DNA from: Nymphaea colorata
Lineage: Eukaryota
Length of the DNA stretch: 64,000 nucleotides
Assembly (NCBI RefSeq): GCF_008831285.2
Contig: NC_045138.2
Span: 20,584,001-20,648,000 of the forward strand
Direction: 5' to 3'
Part shown: piece after piece, positions 8,627-46,500 of the stretch
Layout: each line of letters begins with the position of its first letter
Numbering within the stretch: the first letter of the stretch is position 1
Program-made: the position numbers and the translations under genes
Notes under the pieces: model-generated
What the model saw: the letters and a program-made list of their open reading frames with translations, nothing else
Told to the model about the DNA's origin: nothing
The model's database searches: none

Positions 8627-8680
8627 GAAGAGAAAGATTCAACTAGAAAGGAGGGCATAATATAACTATGAAATAAATGA

Positions 8681-9660
8681 TCATCTCATCTTTCCATGCT
8701 CCCAGTGCACTTGAGCATAGCCTCTTGTCTCTAAAAAGAGATTGAGTGCTATCTCCTTTGGCCATGGGGAGATAAAGATGAGAAGAAAATAAAGAAATGA
8801 AAGCAATGCTGCATTCAATAAAAGGGAAAACATGATTCAATCGTGAAATGAAAGATTATCTCATCTTTCCATGCTCCCGGCGCACTTGAGCATAGCCTCT
8901 TGTCTCTAAAAAGAGGTTGAGTGCTATTTCCTTTGGCATGAAGATGAGAAGGGAAGATGAAAACAATAACAAGACTATGTTCAAGAAAAAGAAATAGCAT
9001 AATAATAACATATTAATGAAAAATAACAACAACAAAAATACTTGAAAGAGCATGATTTAATCATAAAACAAAATATCTTTTCATCTTCTTATGCTCTCGG
9101 TGCACTTGAGCATAGCCTCTTGTCTCTAAAAAGAGGTTGAGTGCTATCTCTTTTGGCCATGGAGAGATGAAGATGAGAAGAGAAAATGAAAACAATCAAC
9201 AAAACTATGTTCAAGAAAAAGGAATAGCATAATAATAAGAACATATTAATGAAAAATAACAACAACAAGAATATTTGAAAAAGTATGATTTAATCATAAA
9301 ATAAAATACCATATCATCTTTTCATGCTCCCGGTGTACTTGAACATAGCCTCTTGTCTCTAAAAAGATGTTAAGTGCTATCTCCTTTGGCCATGATGAGA
9401 TGAAGATGAGAAGAGAAAATGAAAACAATCAACAAGACTATGTTCAAGAAAAATGAATAGCATAATAATGAGAATATATTAATGAAAAATAACAACAACA
9501 AGAATACTTGAAAGAACATGATTTAATTATAAAATAAAATATCATCTCATCTTCTTATGTTCTCGGTACACTTGAGCATAGTCTCTTGTCTATAAAAAGA
9601 AGTTGAGTGTTATCTCCTTTGGCCATGGAGAGATCAAAATGAGAGAAAAATAAAGAAATG
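8681..9660. repeat. Five copies of a ~95-bp conserved core (GCACTTGAGCATAGCCTCTTGTCTCTAAAAAGAGGTTGAGTGCTATCTCCTTTGGCCATG) in ~180-235-bp tandem units inside the solo LTR
   Basis: Core copies start near 8685, 8862, 9082, 9315 and 9548. The A-rich intervening sequences are also related to each other. Confidence 0.9.
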
Positions 9661-9675
9661 AGATGATGATGATTA

Positions 9676-10081
9676 CATACCTCTAATAAGAAATGACCTA
9701 AGGAACATAAACACCTTCACTTGAAGATCACCTTGAAGCTCCAAGATGATGCCTCCAAGAGGATTGTAATAGCACTACAAAACAAATCTTATAATATATC
9801 AAAACATTTGCATGCATACATACATTCACTCACAAAACAATCATTCAATCACATCGCAATCCTAGGATCTCACAGTCATACCTCTAATAAGAAATGACCT
9901 AAGGAAGATAAACACCTTCACTTGAAGATCACATTGAAGCTCCAAGATGATGCCTCCAAGAAGATTGTAATAGCACTACAAAACAAATCTTATAATATAT
10001 CAAATCATTTGCATGCATACATACATTCACTCACAAAACAATCATTCAATCACATCGCAATCCTAGGATCCCACGGTCATA
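9676..10081. repeat. ~201-bp direct tandem duplication inside the solo LTR
   Basis: CATACCTCTAATAAGAAATGACC... starts at 9676 and again at 9877, with few mismatches. Confidence 0.9.
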
Positions 10082-14002: not shown

Positions 14003-14166
14003 ATTTTTATCCATCATAAAAAACATATTAGAGTTTTTAACGGGGGCAATTTCTTTAGAGAAAGATCACCACTGCTCCTCAACTTTCTTTCTTCTACGAT
14101 TTTTCCATTCCCTTTATTTATCATCCTTTTTTTTACTCCATTTTCCTTAATTTCCATGGCATTGAA

Positions 14167-14264
<98 letters not shown>

Positions 14265-14755
14265 GTTTAATGAAACCCTTTTTGCTACGTCGTTCAATCC
14301 TATATTTGAGTAGAGGCAAAAGAAGAGCTCCCATGCACTATGAAAGCGAAGAAAGTAGGGAAATTTCTATTTTTCGTCTTACCTTTTACTTTTATAATTT
14401 CAAAAAATGAAGCACTGTTTATTATTCCCTAAAAGAGACAGTTTCCGTAAAGCTGTTAAAAAAGGGCCAACGTTGACTTTTTTTTTGTTAAAAAAAATAC
14501 AAACACGTAGGTTCGCTTTTCAAGTTTACAAAAATTCACTTCATGCCCTTATATGTTTCTCGCCTTTTTAGACAATATTGTGTACACTGCTGTTCGTGCA
14601 GATGGAGAAATTCATGTTAACCATTTCAAATTCAGATTTGATCAGTGACGTGTTTACTTAATTAGTTAGTTCCAAAAGGAACCGAGGTGCGTTTCTATCT
14701 TTATTTTTTCAAGAAAGACAAAACAAATCAACCTGGAATTCACTCTTCCCGACTC
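14003..14755. repeat. Left copy of a long direct duplication flanking the PIF/Harbinger element
   Basis: Near-identical to 21447-22164. The differences I could see are (CA)/(AT) microsatellite length and a 1-nt indel (CTACGTCGTTC vs CTACGTCTTC). Confidence 0.95.
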
Positions 14756-15297
14756 GGGCCCGTTTGATGGGCGGGTGAAATTTAACACGGTAAGTTTACC
14801 AAGGTAAATTTTTCTAGAAAAATTTAGTGGATGAAATTTTACCCTCTTCCAAAACGAGACCCTGTTTGATTGTCGGGTGAAATTTAACGTGGTAAATTTA
14901 ACCCAGTTTGATGAACATGAAGAATTTAACGTGGTAAATTTAACCCTGTTTGATGCACATGGAAAATTTAACATGGAAAATGTTGTTTTTTTTTTTTCCT
15001 TCCCAATTCCACTTTGGAAGGAGCAGAACCCATATATTTCTTCATCAATCATCCCAAAACAAATCACCATACAACCAGTTCATTAAAAGACACGGCCATT
15101 CACACGATATATATAACAAAAAGCAAAAAAAAATATCTAGCAACACATTACAACAGAAAACACCTTCTTAACTTAATTTATAACTGCAAAAGTTATATAT
15201 TTGTTCCCAAAAACATTAAACAGAAATTGTCCACAAAAGTAACATGAGTACGAATCCACAAAAGGGTGTACTTTCTACTAAGAAGAAAAAACAAAGT

Positions 15298-15624
15298 TCA
15301 ATGAGTACATATCCAACAAAGAAAACATGTAATCACAAAACAAGTAATCCAACATTTCTGGCTGCACTTTCGTTCTTCAAACTTCGTGTCTTCTATATCT
15401 TGCTTTGCGATGACATCTTCAATGAGTGGAGACCTGCTTGCTTGCACACCATACTTGTTCTGGAGATACTCATGCATGTGATTTTCTGCTACTTGTAATG
15501 AATTAAACGATCTGAAAACGGCACCCTTGTACCGATAGACTAATGGTTGGCACCGCTCCCAGCTGTCATATATGCCTCGCTCACGTCCTTCGAAAACCAC
15601 ATAGTACTTTTGGTGGGGCATCAT
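15298..15624 (-). CDS. 108-aa protein with an RNase H1 N-terminal hybrid-binding (Cauli_VI / L9-like) domain and a hydrophobic Cys-rich C-terminal tail; third ORF of the Harbinger element
   Basis: KYYVVFEGRERGIYDSWERCQPLVYRYKGAVFRSFNSLQVAENHM matches the HBD consensus (Y-V-x-x-GR-x-G-[IV]-Y-x-x-W-x-x-C-x-x-x-V...F-x-S-x-x-x-A). ORF is open from ATG 15624 to the stop at 15298. Confidence 0.8.
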   Translation of the reverse strand: MMPHQKYYVVFEGRERGIYDSWERCQPLVYRYKGAVFRSFNSLQVAENHMHEYLQNKYGVQASRSPLIEDVIAKQDIEDTKFEERKCSQKCWITCFVITCFLCWICTH

Positions 15625-17044
15625 TTTCGTTGTCCTGTTGAAAAGAAAACAAATGTCAGACAATCAAACTGAAGAAGTAGTCAACATTTATAAACAAACT
15701 TACTAGTCAATTGATAATCTGTAAACATTTGAGATGATATAGCTGCTCTCAAAGCATTGTTGCTTCCTCGCTGATGTGTTTGGCTTGCAATTTCAGGTTC
15801 GCTTAAGACGAAGTTATCAATCGAAGGTGCATCTTCATCATCAAATTGCTCGGCATTTGGATTGTGTTCAATTATGAAGTTGTGTAGTACACATGTAGCA
15901 AGAACAATTTGAGCTTGTTTTTGGAAAGGATACTGAACTTGCATTTTCAATATTGGAAAACGACCTTTCAACATGCCGAAAGTTCTTTCTACTGTATTTC
16001 GAAGTGATGAATGCCTATGGTTGAATAATTCTTCTTCTGTTCTAGGTGAACGTGCTCCCCGAGTGTTAAACTCAGACATATGATAACGATGTCCTCGATA
16101 AGGTGTAAGCAAACCAACAATGTTTGGATACCCCCCATCAGCCAGATAAAATTTGCCTACAATTGAACACAATTTATTTATACATTGATACATGCTTCTT
16201 AATAAAAGACTGAACTGGTTGGTGGAACTACGTACCTTCTGGGACAACAAATGGGTCTGTTTCATGATCTAGTGCATTGTACAATACTCTTGAGTCTGTT
16301 GCACTTCCTTCCCATCCAGCCAAAACGTAGTGGAATCTAGTATCTAGGCCGACTACAGCCATGACGTTTTGAGAAATGAAACCTTTTCTATTGCGAAACC
16401 TTGCTTGATCTGAAAAAGGAACCCAAGCCGGTATATGTGTGCCATCGATTGCTCCTAAACAATTCTATATGACAAGGCAACTAGTTAGTCATGTTGTAGT
16501 TTGTCATGTTGTATGTGTCATGTTGAGTTCAAGATGATGAAATTACCTCAAAATATGGAAAGAATCGTTTAGAATGTCGAATATGTGCTGGCATCATCTC
16601 ATCATTGGGCCGGCGAACGTAATCCTTACCCAGTATACATATCGCTCGTAGCACTAGGCTGACATATTTACTTATTGTTTGTCCGGAATGTTGAAACGTA
16701 TTTTGAACAGCACGATTCCGTTTATTATGTCCAATTGTCAAAAGCAATATAGCTACTTGTTCTTCTACAGTAATGTCACGAGCATCCTCCAACAAATTTC
16801 TATTCCTTAGAATGTTGCACAATCTCATATATGTATGTCCTTCCATACGGAGTAAGTCCAAACAATTTCTAGGATGACCACGAAGCATTAGTTGGACAAA
16901 AGATGTACCAGCATCTCGAAATGGATGAACAATCCTCCTAGACGATGGTCGGTCTTTCAACCAAAAGAAGATGAAGACAAAAACCATTCGAATGATGAAA
17001 AGCACTCGTTCATCGTCGTCATCGAACATGTCAAAATCAATCAT
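15621..17044 (-). CDS. PIF/Harbinger (HARBI1-like) DDE transposase; exons 17044-16547, 16464-16236, 16156-15704, 15634-15621 (unspliced alternative stop at 15681)
   Basis: GT-AG introns join in frame. Motifs: HTH region VEEQVAILLLTIGHN...FQHSGQTIS, NCLGAIDGTHI, GWEGSATDSRV, FYLADGGY, FNHRHSSLRNTVERTFGMLKGRF, LATCVLHNF. No internal stops found. Confidence 0.93.
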
Positions 17045-17220
17045 TTCGACTAAACTGCATATACATGTAAGGTACTTGAATAACAAAATCAATCATTTCA
17101 ACTAAACTGCATATACATGTAAGGTACTTGAATAACAAAATCAATCATTTCGACTAAACTGCATATACATGTAAGGTACTTGAATAACAAAATCAATCAT
17201 TTCGACTAACCTGCAAATAC
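17033..17220. repeat. 52-bp tandem repeat (three full copies plus a partial) spanning the transposase splice acceptor and start
   Basis: AAAATCAATCATTTCGACTAAACTGCATATACATGTAAGGTACTTGAATAAC starts at 17033, 17085 and 17137, with a partial copy at 17189. Confidence 0.95.
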
Positions 17221-17338
17221 ATTGCAGCAATTTCTCACTACATGGATGTTCATGGAATAAAAAGAAAAACACACAACAAATTGAACTTGTGCTAAATGAA
17301 ACATACAAATAATTAAACTAACAGACATGGAAACTTAC

Positions 17339-18295
17339 CTACAAATCACCAAGTCTACGCGACAACCATGTCAGCCGGTCTTCAGGTGGAACGTTGAGAA
17401 AGATCATGGAATTGGTTCCCTCTCCTAATAGGTCCAGACTCATCAGTCTCGTATGACTATCTAGTAGCCCTGTGTCCACCATCTCTTGTAAAATTTCACA
17501 ACATTTGACATATTGAAACCCTCTAGAAGTATGTGTGAGGGAATCCACATTTTTAGCTATACCGTTCAACAAATTGTAATACATGTCATCGTTGGTTGAC
17601 TTGTTCCGTTTTGACCTACGTGTACTTGTATTGGTTGTCGGATTCTCAGTTGTAGGAGTTGTAGGTAGTGGCGACTGTGTAAATGACTGTTCACTATCAG
17701 GCTGCATGTACGAAGGTGATGTCTGAGATGCAGGTGTACATGGGAGTGGTTCAGTCTCAGCTTCAAGCACGTTGTTTAATGTGACTGCGTTTTGCCCAGT
17801 TGCATGAGATTCGCCATATACCTCGGCGAACTCATCATAGTATCTCCAGACTTTTGGACCTCTGTACTTTTTCCTATTTGGATATTTCTGAAAAAATTCA
17901 TGTGTTCAAATATTGCAGAAGTAAATACATGTGAGACAAAACCTAACAATATTAATTTTATAATTTACCTCAATGTAGTCGTTCCATACTTGGGGGTCGA
18001 CCTCAATGCATTTGTTAATTGGGTCGTAGCCAAACCCACTTGTGTTCAACATTTCCTTCATCACTGTCAAGTTGGGTTTGGAATACTTCAATTTGTTTTT
18101 TATTTTGTCTTTCGTGAATTCTAGACCGAATCTATCCATCATTGCTTTTTCAATAGCTGTGTATGCTTTGGGCTTCAAACCTCCACCGGATTTCATGCCA
18201 GGGATGCGTGACTGCTCCACAAGAAGCTGGACTAAGTAATCCATTTGTGGTTCAGTCCACGTAAGATTTTCTCTTGAAGGACCGCTGTCTTCCAT
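17339..18295 (-). CDS. Myb/SANT-like DNA-binding protein (PIF ORF1, L10-interacting MYB-like); exons 18295-17969 and 17887-17339
   Basis: WTEPQMDYLVQLLVEQ...KAYTAIEKAMMDRFGLEFTKDKIKNKLK...SGFGYDP...WNDYIE|KYPNRKKYRGPKVWRYYDEFAEVYGESHATG, followed by an S/T/P-rich linker and a C-terminal ...IFLNVPPEDRLTWL. Phase-0 GT-AG intron. Confidence 0.92.
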
Positions 18296-21200
18296 GTTAA
18301 CGTTTTGTATAATAATTCTTCACAGTAACAGTAATATAAATCTAGCATGAAGAACATACGAGAAACAACGACAAAGGAGCATCAGAAACCATAAAAGCAT
18401 AAGTAGACCTTTCATACACAGAAAAGAAAGGACAAAAGACGTCAGCAATAAACTGCACTCTAAATCCAATGAAAGTGTTTTTGTGAGAACGATGAGCTAA
18501 TGCTATATGTTATGTTCCATCCATAGAAAAGATCATTACATGTTTTTCTTTCGTCAAAAACATATAAGAGAACAATAACTGAGAATAGAACAATAAGAGA
18601 TGGTGACACAGTTTAAATATAAATGTGACCATAGTAAATCTAAAATCTGAACAAAACAAAGCTGTGAAAATAGAAAACACATCTAAATTCCAATAAAATA
18701 TATAACACATCTAAATGTCAATAAAAAAATATATAACACATCTAAATGTCAAATAAAATATATAAGGAACAACGATTAGATGCCACCAACTATAAGTTAA
18801 GCTAAAGCACTTTCATGTCTCCAAGGAGGGGGGGGGGGGCATGCAGGTGAAGGTGAAGCTAGACGAGGCTGAAAAGCATGTTCATATCTGTATTCTCAAA
18901 TTCTAATTGCTAGTGAATCCATGTGAATGAAAAATGTCCTTCCTTTAAGTAGATTTCAGTCAAATTTCCTCAAAATGATTCAAATATCATGGCTGTTTCT
19001 ACTATTGTTGGGCCCATAAATGTCTCTTATACTTGTTCTTTTGGTTAACCTTCCTTTCGAGAAATGAAGTTTCTATCATCCAGTAATTACCATTCATGTT
19101 CTTATTTACTCACCCTGTTACAGGGACAGGAATTGGACCCAGTGACTGCATTAACTGTGTAATGCTATTTGATAGCAGGTGCTTTCTTATTTTTGTTAAT
19201 ACGCACACACACACATGCATACGGAATTGTGTATCAAATGGATTTAGTTCCAATTGGACCCAGTGACTGCATTAACTGAGTAATGCTATTTGATAGCAGG
19301 TGCTTCCAATGACAAAGTATATTGATACGATTTTCATTTTCAAAAACAAGGAGCCAACATAAAATATTTATGTTTTTTAGTTTATAAGTCATATTAAAGA
19401 AGTTTTTGTTCTCCCTTTTTTGGCTTATAAAATGTCAACTGAACAAGAAGGACCTTCCGTTAATTATTAAACTTCTAGACGTGGACAAGTTTCAACTATA
19501 AGAGCTTTTGTGTAAACTCATATTTCACCAAACTGTCTAAAATAGACAAGTCTTCAGCTTATTTAATAAATTTAACTTCTGTCTTCAAGAAATGAAGATT
19601 GGGAAAAAGTGTATAAAGCAGGAATTGCTCCAAAGTCTCTAAGGTGAATTGACCAACAAAATGTACCCATTTTAGAACAGTATGTTGTTAACTGTCTGCT
19701 CATTGGGTAGACTAAAAAAACAATCTTTTCGTAACTTTACATCATAACTTTACAGGTAAAATAGATCTACTCTTAATTTCAAGAAATATTCAAACCCCAT
19801 TCGACTCAAAAGGCTAGGCAGAGTGCCTGGTGACTTGGTGTGGATTGGCTTACAGGTTACTGTGAACAGGACGCTGAGGTCCCACGTTTTTCACATCAAG
19901 CTGTTTGAGTGAGAGCACTTGCTCACAGCCAAATCTTGTGGGTCCTGCAGCCACATGGAACTTGCACCAATTTGTCAAGGCCAATTATATGGCTGGAACC
20001 AGGACCATGAGCTTCCTCTCCCAGACCAGTCCAACAGAACCTACAACTTCATAGCAGGTGTGGATACATTCACAACCACTTAACTATGAAAAGAAAAGCA
20101 TTTGGTTTTGGTAGCCCACAACTTCACCAAATCATTGATGACTAAACAAAGGCGTCAACAGCATAAGAAATTGAACACAGAGAGAGAGAGCAACTTCACC
20201 AAATAATTGAATGCCTAAACAAATGCATCAGCAACAAAAGAAATATGATATTGGATGTAGCAAAGACGAGAGAAAGAGGGAGCAGAGCAGAAGAAGAACA
20301 GTTTATGCTCCTTTTGTCTTTGCATGGAACTGGGAACCACAAGAGAGTCATCCTATTTGACTTTGTAAAACAGGTAAAGGACACACCAAACTCACGGGCG
20401 GCCATTTTTGAAAGAAATATTTGAGCATCTTCCCTTTCTGCGTCTCTTGACAGTCCCAGATAGACAACCCATTATAAGTTATAAGGCACTGTGGTACTCT
20501 TAATGTTGGTCTTTCACAAAAGAACTTGAGAAGGCAGGACAGGAACTCCAGGAACAGAGATCGATTACTCATTTGTCAGATAGGTTCCTGTACAGGCAAC
20601 TTGCGTCGCTGAAATCTAAGCCCCGTTTCTATCTAAGCACCCAAAGGCCGTAATAAGGGATAACATAATGAAACTCAGAGAAAAGAACGGCGATACTGAT
20701 AACGAGATAAGGTTAAGGCAACCATTTCTATGCCTCCAGGGGCTAAGAGAAAAGAACGGCGATACTGTAGGCGATCATCTGCTTTATCAAGATAAAATTC
20801 ATGCGAAAGAAACAGCACAGAGAAAGGGGGGAAATGTGGGCAGCTAGCGACGGGGAGAGAGAGAGAGAGAGAGTGACAGAGAGATATACCGGCAGAAAAA
20901 TGTCCGACGCCGGCCGCTTGAGGGTGTTGCGACGGTCGACTGTGAAACCCTGACAGTGAGAAGGAACGAGGGAGGAAAAAAATTGGGGCATTAGTCTACG
21001 CGAAAAAAATGGGGGCATTTGAGGGTGCTACCCAGCACAGAGAAAGGGGGGAAATCTGGTGAAGAAAGGTAAGAAATGTGGGCAGCTAGCGACAGAGAGA
21101 GAGAAAGAGAGAGAGAGAGCGACAGAGAGATATACCGGCAGAAAAACCTCCGACGCCGGCCGCTTGAGGGTCTTGCGACGATCGACGGTGAGACCTGGCA

Positions 21201-21333
21201 GTGAGAAGGCACGAGGGAGGAGGAGTTGCGGAGGGAGGTCGAGCGTTGCGGAGGGACTTCGAGCGCTGCGGAGGGAGGTCGAGCGTTGCGGAGGGACTTC
21301 GAGCGCGGCAGCAGAAAAGCATTGATGGGTATA

Positions 21334-21365: not shown

Positions 21366-21446
21366 GTCCGAGCTCGGTGAAATTTCACCCGCCCGTACAA
21401 ATTTTTCCTCCCCCGCCCACTTTCACCTGCCCATCAAACGGGGGCA

Positions 21447-21610
21447 ATTTTTATCCATCATAAAAAACATATTAGAGTTTTTAACGGGGGCAATTTCTTT
21501 AGAGAAAGATCACCACTGCTCCTCAACTTTCTTTCTTCTACGATTTTTCCATTCCCTTTATTTATCATCCTTTTTTTTACTCCATTTTCCTTAATTTCCA
21601 TGGCATTGAA

Positions 21611-21674
<64 letters not shown>

Positions 21675-22164
21675 GTTTAATGAAACCCTTTTTGCTACGT
21701 CTTCAATCCTATATTTGAGTAGAGGCAAAAGAAGAGCTCCCATGCACTATGAAAGCGAAGAAAGTAGGGAAATTTCTATTTTTCGTCTTACCTTTTACTT
21801 TTATAATTTCAAAAAATGAAGCACTGTTTATTATTCCCTAAAAGAGACAGTTTCCGTAAAGCTGTTAAAAAAGGGCCAACGTTGACTTTTTTTTTGTTAA
21901 AAAAAATACAAACACGTAGGTTCGCTTTTCAAGTTTACAAAAATTCACTTCATGCCCTTATATGTTTCTCGCCTTTTTAGACAATATTGTGTACACTGCT
22001 GTTCGTGCAGATGGAGAAATTCATGTTAACCATTTCAAATTCAGATTTGATCAGTGACGTGTTTACTTAATTAGTTAGTTCCAAAAGGAACCGAGGTGCG
22101 TTTCTATCTTTATTTTTTCAAGAAAGACAAAACAAATCAACCTGGAATTCACTCTTCCCGACTC
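21447..22164. repeat. Right copy of the long direct duplication flanking the PIF/Harbinger element
   Basis: Matches 14003-14755 from ATTTTTATCCATC to CTTCCCGACTC. Confidence 0.95.
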
Positions 22165-22552
22165 TTCTATGGAAGAATAAAGTGTGGAAAGTTTTCCATA
22201 CCTGTAAACGCGCTCCAACCAATGGAAAAGGCTTCAGACACCAATCTTGCTTGCTGGATGCTGGTTAACAAGAAAAACGGAGAATATCCCAATTCGAAGC
22301 AATGTCTTAGTACTTTATCGAACTTTTGCTTCCTAACTTCCATAAAGCTTTGGTGGGTCCTCTTCTGTTTTCTTTTCTCAATGTCAGCCAAAAGTCTTTC
22401 TTTCTGCTTTCATGGCGACAGAGTCAAGTCCTCTCTCTCTCCTCCCACAGATGTATATAAGGTGTTTGACGTGTTGGTTTTCTTGTGCTTCTTTTCCCGT
22501 ATTGCGAACTGAGTAAAGAGGGGAGAGGGAGACACGAGACGAGGGGAGAAAA

Positions 22553-25503
22553 ATGAGGCGCTCTCATCTGCTGCCAATTGTGAGGTGCGTGGCAGCAGTA
22601 ACGCTCCTCTCTTGCTGCTGCTGCTGCCTGGCTGCGGAAGGCGGCAGTGAGGTGGATGGTAGCTCACTTCTCCTCCAAAGCCACCTCCGAAAGTCCACTG
22701 TCATCTTCCCCATGAACGGCAGCGTCTATCCTGATGGGTGGGTATTAAGATACTCTCTCTCTCTCATTCACGCACGCACACAGACACAGGCTTATGGATG
22801 ATGACGAATCATAGTCTAAATGGGTAAAATCGAAAAACAAATCAAATTACAGTTATTCGACATGTTTTATTGATTTTATGTGGCTTGTCTGGTTGAATCC
22901 TCAAAATTACCTCAACAAATGGTGGAAAATCGCATCCCATCAAGGGAGACTCTGCCGGATTCACGGTGACCAAGTCAATTTGAATCTCTTGGATTAGGGC
23001 CAACACGACTCTGGTTTCTTGCAGTTTTCAGTTTTGAAATCCCATCTGTGAATAAACAGTACCATGAGAAGATGGGGAGGCTTATTTCTGCGCTTGCCCG
23101 CAAGTTTTGATGTTACCTAAGAATTTCACGGCGAAGCCTGCCATCCGAGCGTCTAAGATCACCACCTTTCTTCATTTGCCATGCTAAAATGAATCTCTAA
23201 TATTCCCCAACTCTGGCCCCTGTTCAACTGAAATGAACCGAATCAGAGTGAAGATCGTGTTTAAGAAATGACCCGAATATCATCATGATCGTCTCAATGA
23301 ATAGCTGGTGTTCTGCAGGCTTTTCTATGTAACTATGTGGATTGGCAAGCCTCCCAAACCATACTTCCTTGATGTGGACACAGGGAGTGACCTTACTTGG
23401 CTCCAATGTGATGCCCCCTGCATTAGTTGCTCTCAGGTAATAAAAAATGGCAACTGTTGAGCAAAGCTATGATGATTTCTGTTATAATCTGCTTTTCGTT
23501 CTTTTGGTTTGTCTGTATTTACCGATGGCATCCATCTTGTAAACGCTTGTAGGGAGCGCACCCTCTCTACAAACCAAAGAAGACCAACTTGGTTCCTTGT
23601 GGGGATCCGCAATGCATTTCTTTGGGTTCACTAAGGGAGTATGAATGTGAAAAGCCAGACCAGCAATGCGACTATTTGATTGAATATGCAGATCGCAGTT
23701 CGTCACTCGGTGTCATTGTGAAGGAAACCTTCTACCTTCGTTCTGCAAGTGGTACCCTGCTTCGTCCTTCTCTTTCATTCGGGTAAGTCGCCATGCTTTG
23801 AAAGGATGGATGGATGCATATTGCTGGATGTTCATGATAAAACTGCTTCTCATAATTCATATCCGGTTCGCTATTGTTTGCAGTTGTGGATATGATCAAC
23901 GAGGCTCCTTAGCGAATCTTCAATCTGCTGCTGATGGCATACTCGGCCTTGGCAGTGGGAAACCGAGCATTGTTTCTCAGTTGAAGGATCATGGAATTGC
24001 CACAAATGTGATTGGCCATTGTATCAGTCCACAGGGAAAAGTAGGGTACCTTTTCTTTGGCGATGATCTTGTACCTTCTACTAAAAGTGCTACATGGATT
24101 GCAATGCACAGCCATCCATCAGGGTAATTAGCTCTCCACATATTCTCTTCCTAGAGAGTCTATGGTTTCAAATCCTTTTATCTCTTCTCTTCGTTTACAT
24201 TGTTGCTCTTACTTGAACCTTAAGTATTTTAAAGAAAGTAGCTGTTGTCGTACCATATTTTGTTGGTTTAATGCATTCAGTATATGTTGCCTCACATGTC
24301 AATTTGCCTAAAATTTTGTTTACATATGAAGAGAAAAAATATGGTGCTTCTAGCCTATTGAAATCCCTTTTCTAAGGCGCTGGTGTGCCAACCATGCAAT
24401 CAGACACCTAGGTTCCTGGTCTTGTACCTTAGTTATAAGCATGGATGTTTCCCTTTGCTAATGAATTACAGAATGCAGTGAAAGTAGAACTTTTTTTGTG
24501 GCTAAACCTTGGGCTTCATATGTTCAGGAAATACTCCCCTGGACCTGCAGACCTGGTTTTAGGCAAGCAGCGGATTAAAGATCTTATGGTCATCTTTGAT
24601 AGTGGCAGCTCATACACTTACTTCACTTCCCGTGTATATGAGGTGCTGCTCTCAGAGGTCAGTTCAAATGAAACAGGTGGAAGGAAAGCCTTTCTAGTTA
24701 TACTATTCCATCTCCTTGACAAAGCACCTCATTTCTGTGTTCTCAGATAAGCAAAGATCTTTCAGGAAAGCCCATCAAGAAAACGAGAGAGGATATAGCA
24801 CTGCCCTTGTGCTGGCAAGGTCCAAAGGCATTCACTTCTTTTTCTGAAGTCAACAATTACTTCAAGCAAATGGTTCTGGAATTCAAGAACAGCAAGAAAG
24901 CTAAGCTTACAATGTCGCCAGAAAATTATTTGATCATCACTGTATGTGTCTCCATCACATGAGTTCCTATCCTGATCCTTTTACTGCTTTTTTAAGTTTT
25001 AGAAAGGGAAAAACAAAAAAGTGACACTGAATTTTCTTCAGGCACAGGGAAATGTATGCTTGGGCATCCTGAATGGAACTGAGGTAGACCTTGGCGACCT
25101 GAATCTTATTGGAGGTAATAATGGTTGAAATGAACTGCACTTGACATTGTCACAAGTGATGAATCTAAACTGCGAGAATTGATCTTCTTTTGGCCTCTGT
25201 TCTCAGACATCTCGATGCAATCACATGTGATCGTGTATGACAACGAGAATCATCAGATTGGCTGGGCGCCTGCAAACTGCAACAGGCTTCCAATGTTCGA
25301 AGCACATTCTTTGTGAACTTAGTTTCTTATTTTTGCAAGGTTAGTAATTAGCTAACTATGAACAGATATCTCTGACCTCTTTTCTTCTGCACAGTTTTGA
25401 TGGTGCCACTCAGTTTTCATCCCAGTGTCATGGCGCAGATGTCCCAGCGAACGAGTTCAAGCAGTGTCCTGCTGCTTACCTGAAACCAGCTGAGTCTGGC
25501 TGA
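22553..25503 (+). CDS. Aspartic proteinase Asp1/nucellin-like (A1 family), copy 1; exons 22553-22737, 23319-23436, 23553-23782, 23884-24123, 24528-24657, 24747-24941, 25042-25114, 25207-25294, 25395-25503 (stop at 25316 if the last intron is retained)
   Basis: Signal-peptide-like N-terminus, GSVYPDG, catalytic LDVDTGSDLTWLQCDAPC and IFDSGSSYTY, DGILGLG, NVIGHC, NVCLGILNG, YDNE..QIGW.PANC. GT-AG junctions keep the frame. Confidence 0.92.
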
Positions 25504-31850: not shown

Positions 31851-34800
31851 TGTAAGATCATTTGGTGGGCCGACATATGTCTATGAGGAATTTCAGACAT
31901 TATAGATGTCTTAAAATAAATATCCGCTTAAGTGATTGCATTTTGGGATATTATGTCATTTTAGATGATATGGGGTAATTTTGAAATGTATAGATACCAG
32001 TACGCAATTATGGACTCTTTGATGGGCGGAATTCGTAATTGTCCTCATTATAAAATGGTAGTGGTCCCTAGGGTCGTGCAATGGTTGCCTGAAACGTTGG
32101 TTTCTAGGGTTTTCCTCTTTCCCATCTGAGAGAGACCTCAAGCGCGCCGCACGTACCCTGGAAGACTCTACTTCGATCTTCCCGTGCACCAGTTCAGATG
32201 GATTCAGGTATACTTTCGCTTCAGTTTAAGGTTTTGTTTATTTCAATGATTTAGCATGAGCATGATCCTGTTTTAGGGTATATACGTTTGGTTTTGTATA
32301 TGCATGAAGGGGAGAAATCCCTACAATTGGTATTAGAGCCTATGCTCATTGTTGAATCGTTGATCTTTTGGATGATTTTTTTTCGGGCTTCCGCTACAGT
32401 CGCCTGAGACACAGGGAAGTATGGCGAAGGGACGGCCAAGCAACCGTCGCCGGAAGGCAAACAGCCGTTTGCCGGCCGTCCTGGCGCGACCCGCCGCCGG
32501 CCCGTCGGTGGTTCCCCTGCGTCTGTCGCAGCCACTCAAGAGGAAGAAAAGGGAAAAGGGGCAGATTTGAAATCAAGGGGAAACCGGCCAGAATCGGCCT
32601 GTTTCCGGCGGGCGTCGGCCCGCCATCGTGGCGGCCGACGTCCGGCGACGCTGGCGGCACCCGCCGGCGGCCACCCACGGTGTTGGGTGGCCTGCCGGTG
32701 GAGCTTCACCGCCCGCCTGCCGTTCGGCAGGCGAGCGGTGGAGGCAACGCCCGCGATCGCTCACGCGGGCAGGCGGACCGGGTCGGGTCTTGCAGACTCG
32801 ATCCGGATCCATCAGATTTAAAAAAAAAATATTCATTTTGCCGCCCGCCCGCGCCTCTGTATCCATGCGGTTTAAGTTTTTTTGAGAAACGGTTCATCCT
32901 TGTCAAACCGGTTCTGAAAAGAGTCAAACGGGTTCATTCGGTTACAGAACGATTCAACTCGATTCAGAACCGGTTCAGACCTTTTAGGGACCGGTTCGGA
33001 CCTTTTGGGGGCCGATTCGGATCATTTTGGGTCCGGCTCATTAAGTTTAAATCCGATTCAGACAGTTTCGAACCTTTTGGAGACCGGTTCATTCAGTTTT
33101 GGAGCCGATTCGGTCCATTTTCGGACCGGTTCAGTTATTTTTCAGTCGATTCAGTTGATTTTCAAACTGATTCAGGGCTTTTCAGACCGGTTTATTCAGT
33201 TTTAGAACCGATTTTAGCCATTTATTAACCGATTCAGTGGGTTTTTTTGAACCGATACGGTCTATTTTTTGACCGGTTCGTCCAATTTTTAGACCGGTTC
33301 AGCCCTATTTAGGGGCACGTGGGTGTTCTAGTTGTGGTTTAAGAACGATAAGGGCCACTTTAAGGCCGATTTAGTGGTTCTTGACCCACTTAAGTACAAT
33401 TATGGTATCGGTTTATAAAATTTTGGACTCTTTTGGGCCCATATCATTGAACCATTTGGTTTTGAATTCAATATAAGACAATTTTGTATGTGTCACATCA
33501 TTGAATCATTTGGTTTTGGATTTAATGTAGAGCAAATTTGTATGTAAATTTTAATTCATGTATCATGTTTTGCATGTTTTAAATTTGTGGGTGTACTTTA
33601 AATGAATGTTTGGATTATGAATTTGATCTTTGGCCATGTCTGTTGTTTAAAATGAGTAAGTTTGTATTTTATGTCGCCAAAATGACCTCTGTTGTACGAA
33701 TTTGCCTGTTTTGAACATTAGATGATAGTATACTTGATCCATGCGGGCAATGATCAACCCAAAGGAGGATTGTTGTTTGGTCAGGTTTAAGTATACAGGG
33801 CAATGAATATGTGATAATTTTTCATGTTTTCATGTAAATAGCGAGTCAATCCAAAGATAGGCTCGTTGTTTGACAGGGTTAATTATCTATATTCATTGTT
33901 GACCAAAAATACCACTTGCAGTTAGTATTTCAATCCCAAGATTGGATATTAACGTTGCACCGATACCTTGTGATGGGATTTAGGCCATTGTACCTTGTGA
34001 TGGGATTTAGGCCATTGTATTTAAATTCATTTATATTTGCTATTTCATTTTTGTACATGTTTTGATTGTGAGCATGTTTGGTATTTTTGTTCTTTGTACA
34101 GTGAGTTCTGCTTTCATGATATCTGTAAATTTGAGTACTGTTCCTCAGTTAAATGGTTCGAATTTTAAGGACTGGAAAGAAACTGTTATGATTGTTCTAG
34201 GTTATATGGATTTAGACCTTGCATTTAGGGAGTTATGCCTACCTCATCCAACAGATCAAAGTTCCCATGAAGATAAGCGGTACTTTGAACGGTGGGAACG
34301 CTCAAACCGCATGTGTCTAATGATCATGAAGAGATCAATCCTAGAAAATTTTAAGAGCTCTATTATTGAAAAGGCTAGTGCCAAGGCGTTCCTTAAAGAG
34401 ATTAAAAAACGTTTTGCTAAAAATGAAAAGGCTGAAACAAGCACTCTTTTGAGTAAACTTGTGACGCTGAAGTATAAAAGTAAGGGGAACATACGGATGC
34501 ACATTATGGAAATGTCTCATCTTGCTTCAAAATTACAGGGGCTAGGTCTGTGGTTATCTGAAGACTTTATAGTGCATATGGTTCTTCTTTCTCTTCCACC
34601 ACAGTTTGGACAGTTTAAAGTTAGTTATAACTGTCAGAATGAGAAATGAGCTCTTAATGAGCTCATTTTGCACTGTGTGGAAGAAGATGAGAGATTGAAG
34701 CATGATAGGATAGAAAGTGCTCACTTGGCTACTACGCCTGAAAGTAAGAAAAAGAATGCTATTAAGGAAGTTGCAGTTGATCATGCATCCATCAAGAAAC

Positions 34801-37641
34801 AAAAGAAACATAAGGAAGACAAATCAAGCTGCTTCTTTTGTAAGGATGAAGGTCATATAAAGAAGGATTGTACTAAGTATCACGCATGGCGTGAAAAGAA
34901 AGGTACGATTTTTACTTTGGTTTGTTCTGAGGTTAATTTAATTTCAGTAACAAGGCACTTGTGGGTAGATTCAGTTGCTACTACTCACATAAGTGTTTCC
35001 GTGCATGGCTGCCTAAATTGTCGGACGCCAATTGCTGCTGAAAGATTCATCTATGAGGGCGATGACATGAAGGCGAAGATTGAAGCCATAGCAGATTTTT
35101 GAGTTATTGTTAAAGACTGGTTGTTATTTGAATTTGATAGAAACTTATGTAATACCGCCTTTTAGACGGAATTTGGTTGTTATTTTCTTACTGAACAAAT
35201 TTGGTTATTATTGTTTATTTGGAGGAAGTAAATTTACGTTGTTTCTGCACTCAAATTTGATTGCCAGTGGTTCTTTGTCTAGTAGCGATAACCTTTATTT
35301 GCTTGATACGGTTGCTTCATATAATGAAACCTTGCGTGTTACGTTTAGTGGTACTAAAAGAAAATTAGTCAAAGAGAATTCTGCTATGTTATGGCATTGG
35401 CGCTTAGGACATATCTTTGAAAATAGAATATAAAGGCTTATGTCAAAAAGAATTCTTGAGTTCCTTGATTTTGCAGACTTTAATGTTTGCATTGAATGCA
35501 TAAAGGGAAAATGAACAAACATTATGGGGTTATAAGTTTTTATAATTCATCCAGTAAGTTTTTCTTTTAAACGGCAAACACTCATTTCTTTGAGGATATT
35601 GAGTTTGGGAGGTGATCAGGTTATGAACATTGCCTTTGAATAGGGACCTGAGTCCACTCTATTCAGAAGAAGGCAATGATGTCGATCTCCATACTGAAGA
35701 ACAAACTCAACAACCTCAAGAAAATTAAGTTGAAGTGTCACTAAGGAAATCCATATATGGACTAAAGCACGTTTTGCAGTCATTACAAACTTCATCAAGT
35801 TATAGTTTCATTTGGTTTCGAAACTAATATGGTTGATGAATGTGTATACCAAAAGTTCAGTAGGGGCAAATTTATCTTTCTGGTTTTATATGTCATTGAT
35901 ATATTGCTAGCAAGTAATGATGTAGGCATATTGCATGAAACTAAGAATTTCTTGTCAACAAAGTTTGACATGAAGGATCTTGGTTGTGCATCTTTTGTAT
36001 TAGGGATCCAAATATTTCGAGATCGTTTTCGGGGTATTCTTTGGATTATCACAAAAGGCCTACATTAATAAGGTGTTTCACTGATATGACATGAAAAGTT
36101 GTAAACCAGAAAATACTCCACTTACTAAAGGAGACAAGTTTAGTCTCAAACAGTGCCCTAAAAGTGAAATCGAATCTAAGGAAATTGAAAGGATTCCCTA
36201 TTCGTCTGTTGTGGGAAGCCTTATGTATGCTCAGGTTTGTACTCGTTTGGATATTGCATTTATCATCAGAATGTTAGGCAGATACTTAAGTGATCCTGGT
36301 ATGGATCATTGGGAAGCAGCCAAAAGGGTATTGAGGTACTTACAAAGAACAAAATGTTTTATGCTCACATACAAGAAGTCAGACCAGTAGGAAATCATTG
36401 GGTATTCAAATTCTGACTTTACTGGGTGCCAAGACAGTAGCATAGCATGTTACGAGGCATCCAATCAAGTTTTATAATTGCGGAATTTTGTCACGGGGCT
36501 GCGCATTATGTATAGTGTAGAAAGACCACTAAGGTTATTGTGTGACAATAATTTAGCAGTCATGTACTTTAATAACAGCCACAGTTTGTCAAAGTCGAAA
36601 CATTAAGTTTTTGGGTTGTTAAAGAGATGATACAGAATGGTCAGGTGTTTAGAGCATATTGGGACAAACTCCATGATTACGGATCTGTTTACCAAGGGTT
36701 TAACACATAAGGTCTTTCATGAAAATGTTGTTCGTATGGGGGTGTTATCCTTGGACGATGTGCAGGTTTAGTAGGAGTTTGTATTTTGTTTGCTCTTATG
36801 TATGGACACATATTCAGTTTTCTGCAGAATAAAATTTAAAGTTCTTTGGTTCCATTCTGTGTTTATGTTTTGATCTCCATAAGGTTTTAAAGTTGGACCA
36901 GTTGAAAATAGACATATTGTAATCACATTACATGTAATTCTCATGCTATACATCCATATCAGATCTATGTCATTGATTGTGTTAACATTTATGATCATTG
37001 AAGGTTTAGCTAATTTTAGTATAGCGAAAGTCGCGTTGGTTCTGTGTTGATATGGTCATGGACGAGATTGGTGAAAATGACATTTTAATAAGATAGCAAT
37101 TATGAGCTCCTAAGGTTTTGTGTAATGTCTGAATGTATAAAGTCATATTTGGTCCAAGTGGGAGATTGTAAGATCATTTGGTGGGCCGACATATGTCTAT
37201 GAAGAATTTTAGACATTATGACTGTTTTAAAATAAATATCCGCTTAAGTGATTGCATTTTGGGATATTACGTCATTTTAGATGGTATGGGGTAATTTTGA
37301 AATGTATAGATAACAGTACGTAATTACGGACTCTTTGATGGGTGGAATTCGTAATTGTCCTCATTATAAAATGGTAGTGGTCCATGGGGTCGTGCAATGG
37401 TTGCCTGAAACGTTGGTTTTTAGGGTTTTCCTCTTCTCCATCTGAGAGAGACCTCAAGCGCGCCGCACGTACCCTAGAAGACTCTACTGCGATCTTCCTG
37501 TGCACCAGTTCAAATGCATTTAGGTACGCTTCCACTTTAGTTTAAAGTTTTGTTTATTTCAATAATTTAGCATGAGCATGATCCTGTTTTAAGATATATA
37601 TATTTGGTTTTGTATATGGAAGAAAGGGAGAAATCCCTACA
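31851..37641 (+). mobile_element. Ty1/Copia LTR retrotransposon, internally deleted and non-autonomous
   Basis: 5' LTR 31851-32325 and 3' LTR 37167-37641 (475 bp, TG...CA). PBS TGGTATTAGAGCC (32328-32340, tRNA-iMet type), PPT AAGTGGGAGA, TSD GAACC/AAACC. Gag (WERSNRMCLMIMK, zinc knuckle CFFCKDEGHIKKDC), protease (WVDSVATTH), GAG-pre-integrase (LWHWRLGH), RT (LVLYVIDIL, YSSVVGSLMYAQVCTR) and RNase H remnants. Integrase core missing; stops and frameshifts. Confidence 0.95.
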
Positions 37642-38059
37642 AAACCATCACAGGGATGCGCCTAGACCCCCGGCCATCTTTTGGGACAAATGAAACCATA
37701 GTTCAATCTGCTTGTGTTTAAGGAGGAAGTTTAAGAAAACGATGTTCCCTATGCCAGCAGCTTGCGTTGGAAAGGGCAAATATGATGATTAAATACTTTT
37801 ATATACATAAAATAATCGAAAGAATCAATCCTACAACTTAAATGATAGATCGTAAAGAATCAATCTAAATGATAGATCGTTCTTTATAAAATATTTAAAG
37901 AAAGAGCTGTCTTTATTCATGTCTGTTTTTGGATTTTGAAACACCCATGATTTGACAGAGGAAGCTTACGAAAACACAAAAGGCTTATCAAGAATTTTCC
38001 CTTTACAAACCCACCATTCAACTACGGTACCCTTGCCCTCTCTTGCTCGCTTCCTGTAA

Positions 38060-43523: not shown

Positions 43524-46500
43524 ATGGTGACGATGGGGGAGAAGAAGATGGGGAGGTTCGTCGGGCTCACTGCAGTAGTGGTCTTTGTGGTGTTCTGCAA
43601 CTTTGCCGCATTTCAGTTTCCCGTCTGCCTTGCTGGGAGAAGCGGCGGATTTACCGGCGGCGTCGGACGCCGTGGCAGCTCGTCTACCTCCCTCGTATTG
43701 CCTATCAGAGGCAGCGTCTATCCTGAAGGGTAACCTCTCTTTCACTCTCTCGATCAATGCTTAAATTCGGGGTCGTTAACTCGCTGTGACAGAGAAATTA
43801 GAAATTCCGTATGCTTGGTGACGAATCTTCTCGAAACTAGTGAATTCATGCAATGAACTGAACATCTCGAGTTACGTGCCACACAGCAACCCCTGTTAAT
43901 GTCATCTCTGCGATTTCCTAAAGAATGGCTCCGTATCAGTATCTTTGCTTTTCTGTAAGCGGTCTACTACCCTCTTTGGATGATACCAATTTGTGAATGG
44001 TTTTATAAAATCTAAGTTTTTTAAACTTGGTTTAGTTACTGGGGGATACCCAAATCTAGTTTTTGTCTTTTTAATAGTTTTACTCTGTCATATAAAATCA
44101 TGTTTTGGTTTTGGATTTTCTAACTCAGTTTTGACAGCACCCAACACTCCAAAAACTTAGTTTTAAAAGAAAAACTTGGTTTTGCATCAAACATTTGGTT
44201 TTGAAGTGTCATTCAGACGCGGTTCTCTAGAAAACGAATAAACAAATGGTTTTAAAGCAGTCCGGCGTGGCTCTTGTCTTGCTGTCCATATCCAAGAAAA
44301 GGAATGAAAAAAAGAAGTAGCCAATTGAAAATGGCCCATTCCTTAATGTGAAAATGGTGATCGTTGAAATGAAAAGAGCCAATTGCAGATGCAACGGTGA
44401 TTTCAGGACCCACCTTATCAGCAACCTTTCTGCAGGTTCGAGGGAAACAGGGTGGTTTCTGGGCGACGCCATTGTTAACCAAATGAAAGATTTGTATTTG
44501 CAGGTTGTTTTACGTGACACTGTGGGTTGGGTCGCCCCCTAGGCCATATTACCTTGACGTGGACACAGGCAGCGACTTCACGTGGATCCAATGCGACGCC
44601 CCTTGCGTCAGCTGTTCTCAGGTAACTACTCTAAGCAGAGCTTAGATGGGCAAGAAAAATACTGTGCGACAAGTTTTATGAGTCTACCATTTTTCCCACG
44701 CTACCAAACACAGAAGAATTTTCTCTGCCAAATTAAGCGGATCTGGATAAACAATTCTCGGAAAAACAAGTCAGGGGCACAAAGGTTGAAAAGACAAGAG
44801 AGTGAGGTGAGGGTCATTTTCGTCTTTTTGAGAAAAAAAAAAGGTGGTTTCCCTTCCTCCGGAAAAACTCTGCTGGGGGATAGACCCCTGCTTGGTAGAA
44901 GAATATTTTTTTCCTTTTTTTTTGTGGGGGTTCTTGTCCTTGCAGGGGAAAAGAATACTTTTTCCCTTCTTTTCAGTTTTGGCCTCTTAGGGGGAAGGGT
45001 GTGCAACCCAGTGTTATGAAAATCGGCCCAATATCTGAAATGTTGATTTAAAGATGCCTAATGTCGCTTGCCAAAGATTATTTTGATACATTTTCAATTT
45101 TTTATCTTTAAAGTTTTTTATATGTTTATTTTAATTATTTTAAGGACAATTATTCTTTTAATATATTTGGCCAATTCACCTAAATTGGCGATGGTCTTGG
45201 TCTCACCGATTCGGCTGCTGAATCTATTTTAATAACACCACTTCAAACGATTCTTTTAGTACCTCCCAAAAAAATAGCATATCATGTGCTATTGTAATTG
45301 TACAAAAAGTAGGCAATTGCACGTCAAAAGTTGAAATTTTAAGCTTCCTTCTACTTTTGCCGTATAAATGTGAATTTTATAGTTTAAAAGCCTGCAAATT
45401 TACTCTTGGATGGGTCTTGGCTCTTTCTAGATAAGTGAATACGACTTTATAAGGAGTGAAAGGTTCTTTAACGTTTTCCAACTTTCCAAGTTCAGTAACC
45501 TTATTTAGAAGAACGAATAATTGGGCATAAGATTGAACTTAAGAGCTTCAAACTATTGTGATTTCATCCGTAGGGTTCAAGTTCTTGTGGAACGTCAGTC
45601 ATTTTCATAGTCACCAACAAAAGAAGTTGGGAATTCCATTGCAACTTACATACTACTTTTCCCACTTCATGGTGAGCAGTTGAACTCCAATGTCAGAAAA
45701 AGTCCAACGCAAATTTGGCTATTTGAGCAAACAAAGCTTGACCTAGTTTATGGGAGAGTTCTTCTAAAAGAAAGAAAGTAGAACCATGCCAAATTTGATA
45801 AGTTGGTTCTCTGTTTGCTCCTCTTTGTTATTTTTCTTTGCAGACAAAGATTTCACCAATGCAAGGAAACTTTAGTTGTCCTTTTGGTGGCATAAAGCCC
45901 GATGTTGATACTTTCACCCCCAGTGGTGGAACCATAAAATTTTGGCTCCAAGGTGCTGATGTCTCGATGGCTTAGTGGGTTGGGTGTAGGGGTGTACAAG
46001 GAGTCGACCTGGGCTCAACTAGAACTCAATTCATTTATAATCGAGTCGAGCCCGGGTTTAAAGTTATGCTTGAAATGTTAAACAAGTTGAGTTCGAGTTG
46101 TAAGAACCAGCTTGTTTAAATTCCGCTCAGCTTGACTACATAGATGCATCATGAATGAGAGATTTCTGTTGCTAAGTTTTTCATTATGGGATACTTAGAT
46201 GCAGAATATGTGTACTATTTCTTGGTAGTTTATAGTTGAATTTGTTAAAAGAACCCAGTTAACTAAGTTAAAAGAAACAACATGGATTCAGTTACTAGAA
46301 ACAAGTTAAACTAGTTGAGCTTGAGCTCGACATTGTATCGTAGAGTTGAGCTCGAGCTCAACCTATTGCATGGAGCAGGACACTCTGCTCGTGTGCAGCC
46401 CTAGTTGGGTGCCTGGACGACACTGGTTGGGTCTATTATGGGTACTACACATGTTTGGAGCCTAGTCCAGCTCCACACCAAGATCCACATAGCTCCAATA

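Follow-up and report, generated by a model that had tools for sequence, protein, structure and literature searches.

Plant PIF/Harbinger transposons have been described with two ORFs (PMC4482050, PMC2213677, PMC4423477, PMC11161486), and their terminal repeats follow the consensus GG(G/C)CC (PMC4423477, Table 1). In Medicago elements of the MtPH-M/Master type, GGGCC-type repeats accompany a Myb/SANT ORF (orf1) that is followed by an intron-bearing DDE_Tnp_4 transposase (PMC2213677, PMC4423477, PMC4482050). An element of similar design lies in the window, by which we mean the whole 64,000-nt stretch of Nymphaea colorata DNA that was analyzed. It is 6.7 kb long and bounded at both ends by 25-nt inverted repeats (14756-14780 and 21421-21445), which read GGGCC on one side and GCCCC on the other, in agreement with the PIF/Harbinger consensus. 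Its minus strand carries a Myb/SANT ORF (ORF1, PF12776, E 6e-16), the second ORF typical of PIF/Harbinger, a DDE transposase (PF13359) and a further ORF of 108 aa (ORF3, PF01693). The DDE_Tnp_4 match falls in exons 2 and 3 of the transposase, whose spliced frame from 17029 is open over 392 aa. Because of these ORFs and inverted repeats, the element is classified, from its sequence, as a PIF/Harbinger transposon. Its features are as follows.

14756-14780, no strand: terminal inverted repeat at the 3' end of the element, starting GGGCC and identical to the other end at 22 of 25 nt
15298-15624, minus strand: ORF3, 108 aa, with an RNase H1 hybrid-binding-type domain (aa 6-48), a disordered linker and a hydrophobic C-terminal helix (aa 86-107)
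15619-15634, minus strand: start of the shared last exon, a 10-nt leader and then ATGATG; the transposase TGA is at 15623-15621
15635-15703, minus strand: 69-nt phase-1 intron (6 reads), containing a weak alternative donor (15699) and the stop codon that the transposase frame reaches without splicing (15683-15681)
15704-16156, minus strand: transposase exon 3, the DDE core (PF13359, E 1e-16)
16236-16464, minus strand: transposase exon 2 (PF13359), with a phase-1 donor at 16235 that also joins 15635 (3 reads)
16547-17044, minus strand: transposase exon 1, with the start at 17044 inferred from the Nymphaea thermarum model P0262 and an alternative start at 17029
17032-17222, minus strand: 52-nt tandem repeat before the transposase, multiplying the acceptor and ATG; only the ATG of the last copy (17044) opens the transposase frame
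17339-17887, minus strand: ORF1 exon 2, with a terminal TAG and the donor (17338) immediately after it
17969-18295, minus strand: ORF1 exon 1, with the Myb/SANT-like DNA-binding domain; its ATG follows the end of an AG by 22 nt
21421-21445, no strand: terminal inverted repeat at the 5' end of the element, pairing with 14756-14780

The borders of the element differ from those of known PIF/Harbinger insertions. The sequences beside its ends are CTC and AAT instead of a 3-bp TAA/TTA duplication, and in place of the latter a direct duplication of about 0.7 kb surrounds the element (14003-14755 and 21447-22164). The absence of the 3-bp duplication would follow from the position of this copy between the two flank copies, since such a rearrangement would remove the first insertion site. 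Apart from an (AT)n tract and a single 1-nt gap, the flank copies are identical. This duplication suggests either a very recent transposition-linked event or an assembly artefact. Just beyond the element, a host gene (22500-25300) encodes an aspartyl-protease-type domain, TAXi_N, and has a paralogue about 66% alike at 44500-48200. The window also holds a degenerate tandem array (8640-10080) and a 476-nt duplication with 92% identity (31851-32326 and 37167-37642).

The intron of ORF1 (17968-17888) was spliced in 9 RNA reads. Before the transposase, the 52-nt repeat supplies four copies of the acceptor and ATG, the first three of which give ORFs of 16-19 codons. The CAG acceptor of the transposase stands 10 nt before its ATG, a distance also seen in ORF3, and ATG-A is the sequence at both starts.

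An earlier note on this DNA had proposed that a 69-nt intron places the transposase stop codon on the start codons of ORF3, and the geometry it described was reproduced. On the minus strand, the donor CTA/GTAAGT is present at 15703 and the acceptor, which reads TTTTCAACAG, at 15635. Joining the two gave a transposase ending in T-R-Q-R-K-TGA, and on the joined sequence the TGA (15623-15621) overlaps both ATGs (15624-15622 and 15621-15619). RNA reads showed the same junction: in run X21, which is from a related water lily, exactly 15635-15703 was skipped by 6 reads, each with its own start. The RefSeq N. colorata models XP_049934366.1 and XP_049934859.1/60.1 finish in ...DYQLNRQRR, which is the spliced transposase end with the same TGA. 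RNA runs were picked by species label and joints were listed from 3 reads upward. About 6 in 100 of X21 was sampled, giving 367 aligned reads; because most of these are 90-99% alike to the window, they come from related copies and not from this locus. Another 161 reads were aligned from X23 and 0 from X24, and neither run yielded a joint. The exact 69-nt joint was not among the joints listed for X22 and X23 at the threshold of 3 reads, nor among those listed in a second alignment, in which 18334-21245 is almost without coverage.

The acceptor at 15635 received three donors in X21, namely 15703 (6 reads), 16235 (3 reads) and 17338 (6 reads), which makes ORF3 a shared last exon. The donor at 17338, at the Myb stop, was joined to 15635 in an X5 contig from a second organism as well (depth 22), and an X11 contig stops exactly at 15634. 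Both transposase donors (15703 and 16235) are phase 1, and both frames terminate on the TGA that overlaps the ORF3 ATG. In the Myb isoform, TAG and the ORF3 ATG are separated by 10 nt, without overlap. The proposal of one mRNA for the transposase and ORF3 is supported insofar as reads splice from transposase exon 3 into the exon of ORF3, but the acceptor is common to three donors. Similarly, AUGA as a putative coupling signal is found on the transposase isoforms, whereas the Myb isoform with its 10-nt gap is as frequent (6 vs 6 reads). The overlap of stop and start is only one aspect of a last exon that several isoforms share. With a random leader of 1-15 nt and a random intron phase, the upstream frame stopped over the ATG in 0.124 of trials; a single overlap, arising about 1 in 8 times by chance, is weak evidence and not far beyond chance.

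Our preferred reading, to which we give a probability of roughly 0.45, is a three-gene PIF/Harbinger element in which ORF3 is a shared last exon translated by restart just after the upstream gene. A Myb or transposase donor would splice to 15635 and thereby place ORF3 last on the mRNA. If the spliced RNAs are full-length bicistronic mRNAs, ribosomes would finish the upstream ORF and reinitiate at the nearby ORF3 ATG with low efficiency, and the short stop-to-start distance, not the exact overlap, would be what counts. Reinitiation is favored because each listed junction read has a long ORF upstream and because the frame pattern recurs; in X21, the 15 reads listed for a junction at 15635 (6+3+6) all come from donors inside or ending a long ORF. 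Leaky scanning to ORF3 is implausible because 24 and 31 ATGs precede it in the mRNAs. The motif UGGGA is characteristic of TURBS. A TURBS-type mechanism was rejected because, although stop and start are adjacent, this 18S-complementary motif, placed 40-90 nt upstream in such systems, was absent from the 120 nt upstream of the overlap or gap in both main isoforms (Myb and exon 3). It occurs at -89 in the minor exon-2 isoform, in conserved coding sequence. A further point against this reading is that reinitiation after long ORFs normally depends on a viral helper or on an element in cis (PMC10275272, PMC5902531). In plants it is described with the TAV protein of CaMV, where no cis element is needed and close stops and starts help (PMC5902531).

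The same junctions could arise if ORF3 were the first ORF of its own mRNA. A leader exon, an internal start or a deleted copy would then splice to 15635, and the Myb and transposase mRNAs would borrow the poly(A) site of the last exon. Donors at or before the upstream stops would let these mRNAs escape intron-triggered decay, leaving the overlap as a by-product. In plants, an intron located more than 50 nt past a stop codon triggers decay (PMC3711448). Here, the junction is 0 nt past the stop or 11 nt ahead of it, as that rule demands. All three ORFs of the element begin 10-25 nt after an acceptor-like AG, as splicing of a common leader would give, and A stands at -3 of the ORF3 ATG. Two predicted N. 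thermarum models point the same way: P0016 joins sequence resembling the 5' part of the element (window 21374-21174) to the ORF3 exon, and P0008 likewise joins 5'-like sequence, in a stretch it has in common with the start of P0261. Among the listed joints and loose ends, however, none runs from a leader to 15635 and none ends at 15634; this objection is weak, as those listed are only some of the joints and loose ends detected. The leader is also barely covered. In X21, the ORF3 exon reached a depth of 33, somewhat above the sum of transposase exon 3 (11-13) and Myb exon 2 (8-14). By rough bookkeeping, 15 of about 21-23 callable junction reads are explained and the intron depth of 2-5 covers part of the remainder, so any further isoform is a minority in X21; up to a handful of the roughly 22 reads stay unexplained and would suit a separate ORF3 mRNA. 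We regard such an mRNA as a serious possibility, close behind reinitiation and at less than even odds. If it exists, the overlap is incidental and the interest of the locus rests on the third gene alone.

The overlap was also compared among relatives. The proteins closest to ORF3 belong to N. thermarum and N. colorata and share up to 88% identity with it across most of the protein. The residue after the ORF3 methionine was M, I or K in 20/20 Nymphaea proteins, down to 56% identity, and ATG-A is kept in all 20 because every codon for these residues begins with A; the 20 are related sequences and represent three residue-2 states only. Among controls with the domain at the N-terminus (n = 159), 38 must and 19 may carry A after ATG. 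Spacing of three codons from the acceptor to ORF3 was preserved in 15 of the 16 models that reach upstream. Conservation of the overlap is thus compatible with all 20 proteins, but one highly expressed copy apparently lacks it. Reads from run X22 that span the junction (29, with 7 starts) show 8 letters there, compared with 9 in the spliced form of the window. By our reading, this 1-nt shorter junction would shift the transposase stop about 41 nt inside ORF3, with loss of the overlap, and the X22 copy may be defective. Sense reads of X22 heap at 16642-17043, 15704-15837 and 15168-15435, with an estimated depth inside the intron of about 100-fold. If the library is 3'-tagged, these peaks suggest that transcripts end ahead of ORF3. 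The greatest sense depth in X22, up to 1426, is confined to transposase exon 1 (16642-17043) of a related copy and possibly reflects a truncated, early-ending transcript.

Relatives also bear on a -1 ribosomal frameshift at GAAAAUG, which the earlier note had offered as a route to a transposase-ORF3 fusion. With respect to the spliced transposase, ORF3 is indeed in frame -1. Slippery sites are heptamers of the form X XXY YYZ, a pattern that GAAAAUG does not follow and for which no conserved instance exists at this junction. Position 15625 differed in 29/29 X21 reads and 34/34 X22 reads, in X20 and X11 contigs and in most X5 contigs, so the proposed slippery site is removed in nearly all relatives. 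Frameshifting is therefore hardly credible here.

Genes resembling ORF3 also occur outside water lilies. Short proteins with the PF01693 domain, some with a hydrophobic tail, are present in Nicotiana, Rhododendron and Zingiber records. An atlas search, in which all matches were below 0.9, yielded two Streptophyta clusters of short PF01693 proteins as a lead. A pattern scan of metagenome contigs returned 31 loci, 19 of which were set aside as bacterial RNase H or as non-plant by translation. The remaining 12 read as plant DNA, and 9 were analyzed after exclusion of L010 and L013 (near-copies of L003) and L011 (without an ATG). In six distant plant loci, presumably grass elements, the ORF3-like gene lies downstream of PIF-type Myb or transposase pieces. 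It follows a Myb-like ORF in L022 and L032 (PF12776 below the cut-off, E 4e-4 and 2e-3, respectively), ORFs resembling the second exon of that type of Myb-like ORF in L019, L029 and L030, and a piece of transposase exon 1 in L027 (E 4e-13).

An acceptor-like AG was found 2, 5 or 8 nt before the ATG in 9/9 distant loci, which is a single frame class. ORF3 on its own mRNA leaves this one-frame distance unexplained. That explanation gains from L015, where a GC-rich stretch, an acceptor and ORF3 follow one another without an upstream Myb or transposase match and without ATG-A. A putative phase-0 donor would stop over the ATG in 6/9 loci, with the overlap absent in L003, L015 and L030. The three strong upstream donors that were scored, all of them predicted (L022, L032 and L027), are phase 0. 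By chance, the frame pattern has a probability of 0.11 to 0.01 for 3 to 5 independent cases. We treat it as suggestive only, because it comes from few lineages (about 3-5) with putative donors and because the acceptor rule for these loci was revised after the first pass had picked intronic ATGs in L015, L022 and L029.

Several distant loci have further features in common. About 50 nt past the Myb-like stop there is a motif (L019:331-399, L022:799-864, L027, L029 and L032:620-684), with a complementary GGGT 55-60 nt later in the forward direction of ORF3; the consensus stem after this stop folds weakly (-2.3 kcal/mol). Downstream of ORF3 in L029 (1678-2028), L022 and L032 lies a convergent ORF that contains the stretch C-x-F-x-E-W-x-D and encodes a helical region as well as a hydrophobic tail; we take it to resemble GRF zinc-finger proteins, a likeness for which Pfam gave no confirmation. 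In L013 (2925-7000), an ORF3-like gene stands beside B3-domain ORFs (PF02362, weak) without a Myb or transposase match, and for this reason other plant elements may carry the domain as well.

A phase-1 donor would instead fuse the upstream frame to ORF3 in 8/9 of the distant loci, as would be expected if ORF3 were mainly a C-terminal domain of the transposase or Myb protein. In the window, the donor 4 nt downstream of the main one (15699) yields an open 501-aa frame, which would be a membrane-tethered fusion. Five N. thermarum models (P0007, P0009, P0258, P0260 and P0261) use a donor at this position and read through the junction as ...QLNSKTTKMM or similar. However, the +4 site TAA/GTTTGT is a weak donor, both RefSeq N. 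colorata models use the main one, and the corresponding 65-nt joint was not listed at the threshold of 3 reads, against 6 reads for the 69-nt joint. The methionine before the domain was retained in 9/10 distant loci checked, as for a start codon. A fusion as the main form of ORF3 is unlikely on this evidence. In a Pfam scan of 47 longer or plant-like homologues, Myb and PF01693 were joined only in P0020 (Nymphaea), and the transposase was joined to the PF01693 domain in 0/47.

The ORF3 protein matched the PF01693 profile with E 4e-17, and its model has the three-strand, two-helix fold of a hybrid-binding domain. Trp22 is a conserved residue of ORF3. Its predicted structure (pLDDT 79.5) has a confident domain, a disordered linker and a helix at 86-107. 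The model superimposed on the hybrid-binding domain of human RNase H1 (3bsu) with an rmsd of 0.9 A over 45 columns, and by sequence ORF3 matched yeast 1qhk with E 7e-10 and 3bsu with E 0.006. Several models of caulimovirid TAV were matched with E 1e-5 to 5e-4, and phage and giant-virus proteins were matched as well. The hydrophobicity of the tail was 1.5 in the window and 2.0-2.5 in four distant loci. ORF3 is predicted to bind double-stranded RNA or RNA:DNA hybrids and to be membrane-anchored through its tail, and its most plausible predicted role is that of an accessory or anti-silencing factor. An RNA-binding membrane protein of this kind, if real, would be a candidate silencing suppressor. 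ORF3-like loci were seen in contigs that are viral by contig name: 2 in one scan, 3 including the same two contigs in another and none in two further scans.

The domain family shared with TAV allows a bolder variant, in which a polycistronic PIF/Harbinger element encodes its own reinitiation helper and ORF3 lets ribosomes restart, both from Myb to transposase and from Myb or transposase to ORF3. The RNase H-like dsR domain of TAV binds TOR, eL13 and eL18 and is part of mini-TAV, and the ORFs of CaMV abut within a few nt (PMC5902531). ORF3 belongs to the same PF01693 family as caulimovirus TAV/P6, but the fold match is not specific to TAV, since phage, giant-virus and human RNase H1 structures match about equally. 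TAV/P6 has about 420-530 aa with binding regions for eIF3g, eL24 and RISP, whereas ORF3, at 108 aa, has no counterparts of these. We consider a self-encoded helper quite improbable. In its account of TAV, a 2018 review knew of no TAV-like factor outside Caulimoviridae (PMC5902531); a TAV-like ORF3, if true, would be the first such activity outside that family and a possible cellular source of it.

Herein, the more solid novelty is the conserved third gene in plant PIF/Harbinger elements, more than the overlap. A literature search by title and abstract opening, mostly among open-access papers, found neither a third RNase H1-type ORF nor a polycistronic mRNA in plant PIF elements; supplements and Repbase entries may mention a third ORF. 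The main text of PMC13547354 contains no Harbinger, PIF, polycistronic or RNase H. Present in water lilies and in distant plants behind differing ORFs, the third gene would represent an accessory factor that annotation has missed in a large superfamily of plant transposons; gene predictors wrongly label it 'Ribonuclease H' or fuse it to the transposase. Reinitiation after a long ORF, if true, would be a natural plant nuclear case of a mainly viral mechanism that is rare in plant nuclear genes, at a short junction open to an easy reporter test.

Among systems with comparable expression, the maize Spm/En (CACTA) element makes several proteins, including TnpA and TnpD, from one alternatively spliced unit, with a dicistronic isoform among its products. 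Its downstream protein is thought to be made from its own monocistronic isoform. Spm/En belongs to another superfamily, and its monocistronic route corresponds to ORF3 having an mRNA of its own. Green-algal bicistronic genes are also nuclear, with two long ORFs on one mRNA, but they use leaky scanning past few upstream ATGs (PMC11291117), whereas ORF3 is preceded by 24-31. Caliciviruses, influenza B and SART1 have an AUGA-type stop-start overlap after a long ORF (PMC10275272, PMC5902531). Here, in contrast, the overlap lies in a plant nuclear DNA transposon, is made by splicing, coexists with an isoform that has a 10-nt gap and lacks UGGGA in the main isoforms; coupling is putative. Relative to the two ORFs of known PIF/Harbinger elements, the element in the window adds a conserved third ORF as a shared last exon.
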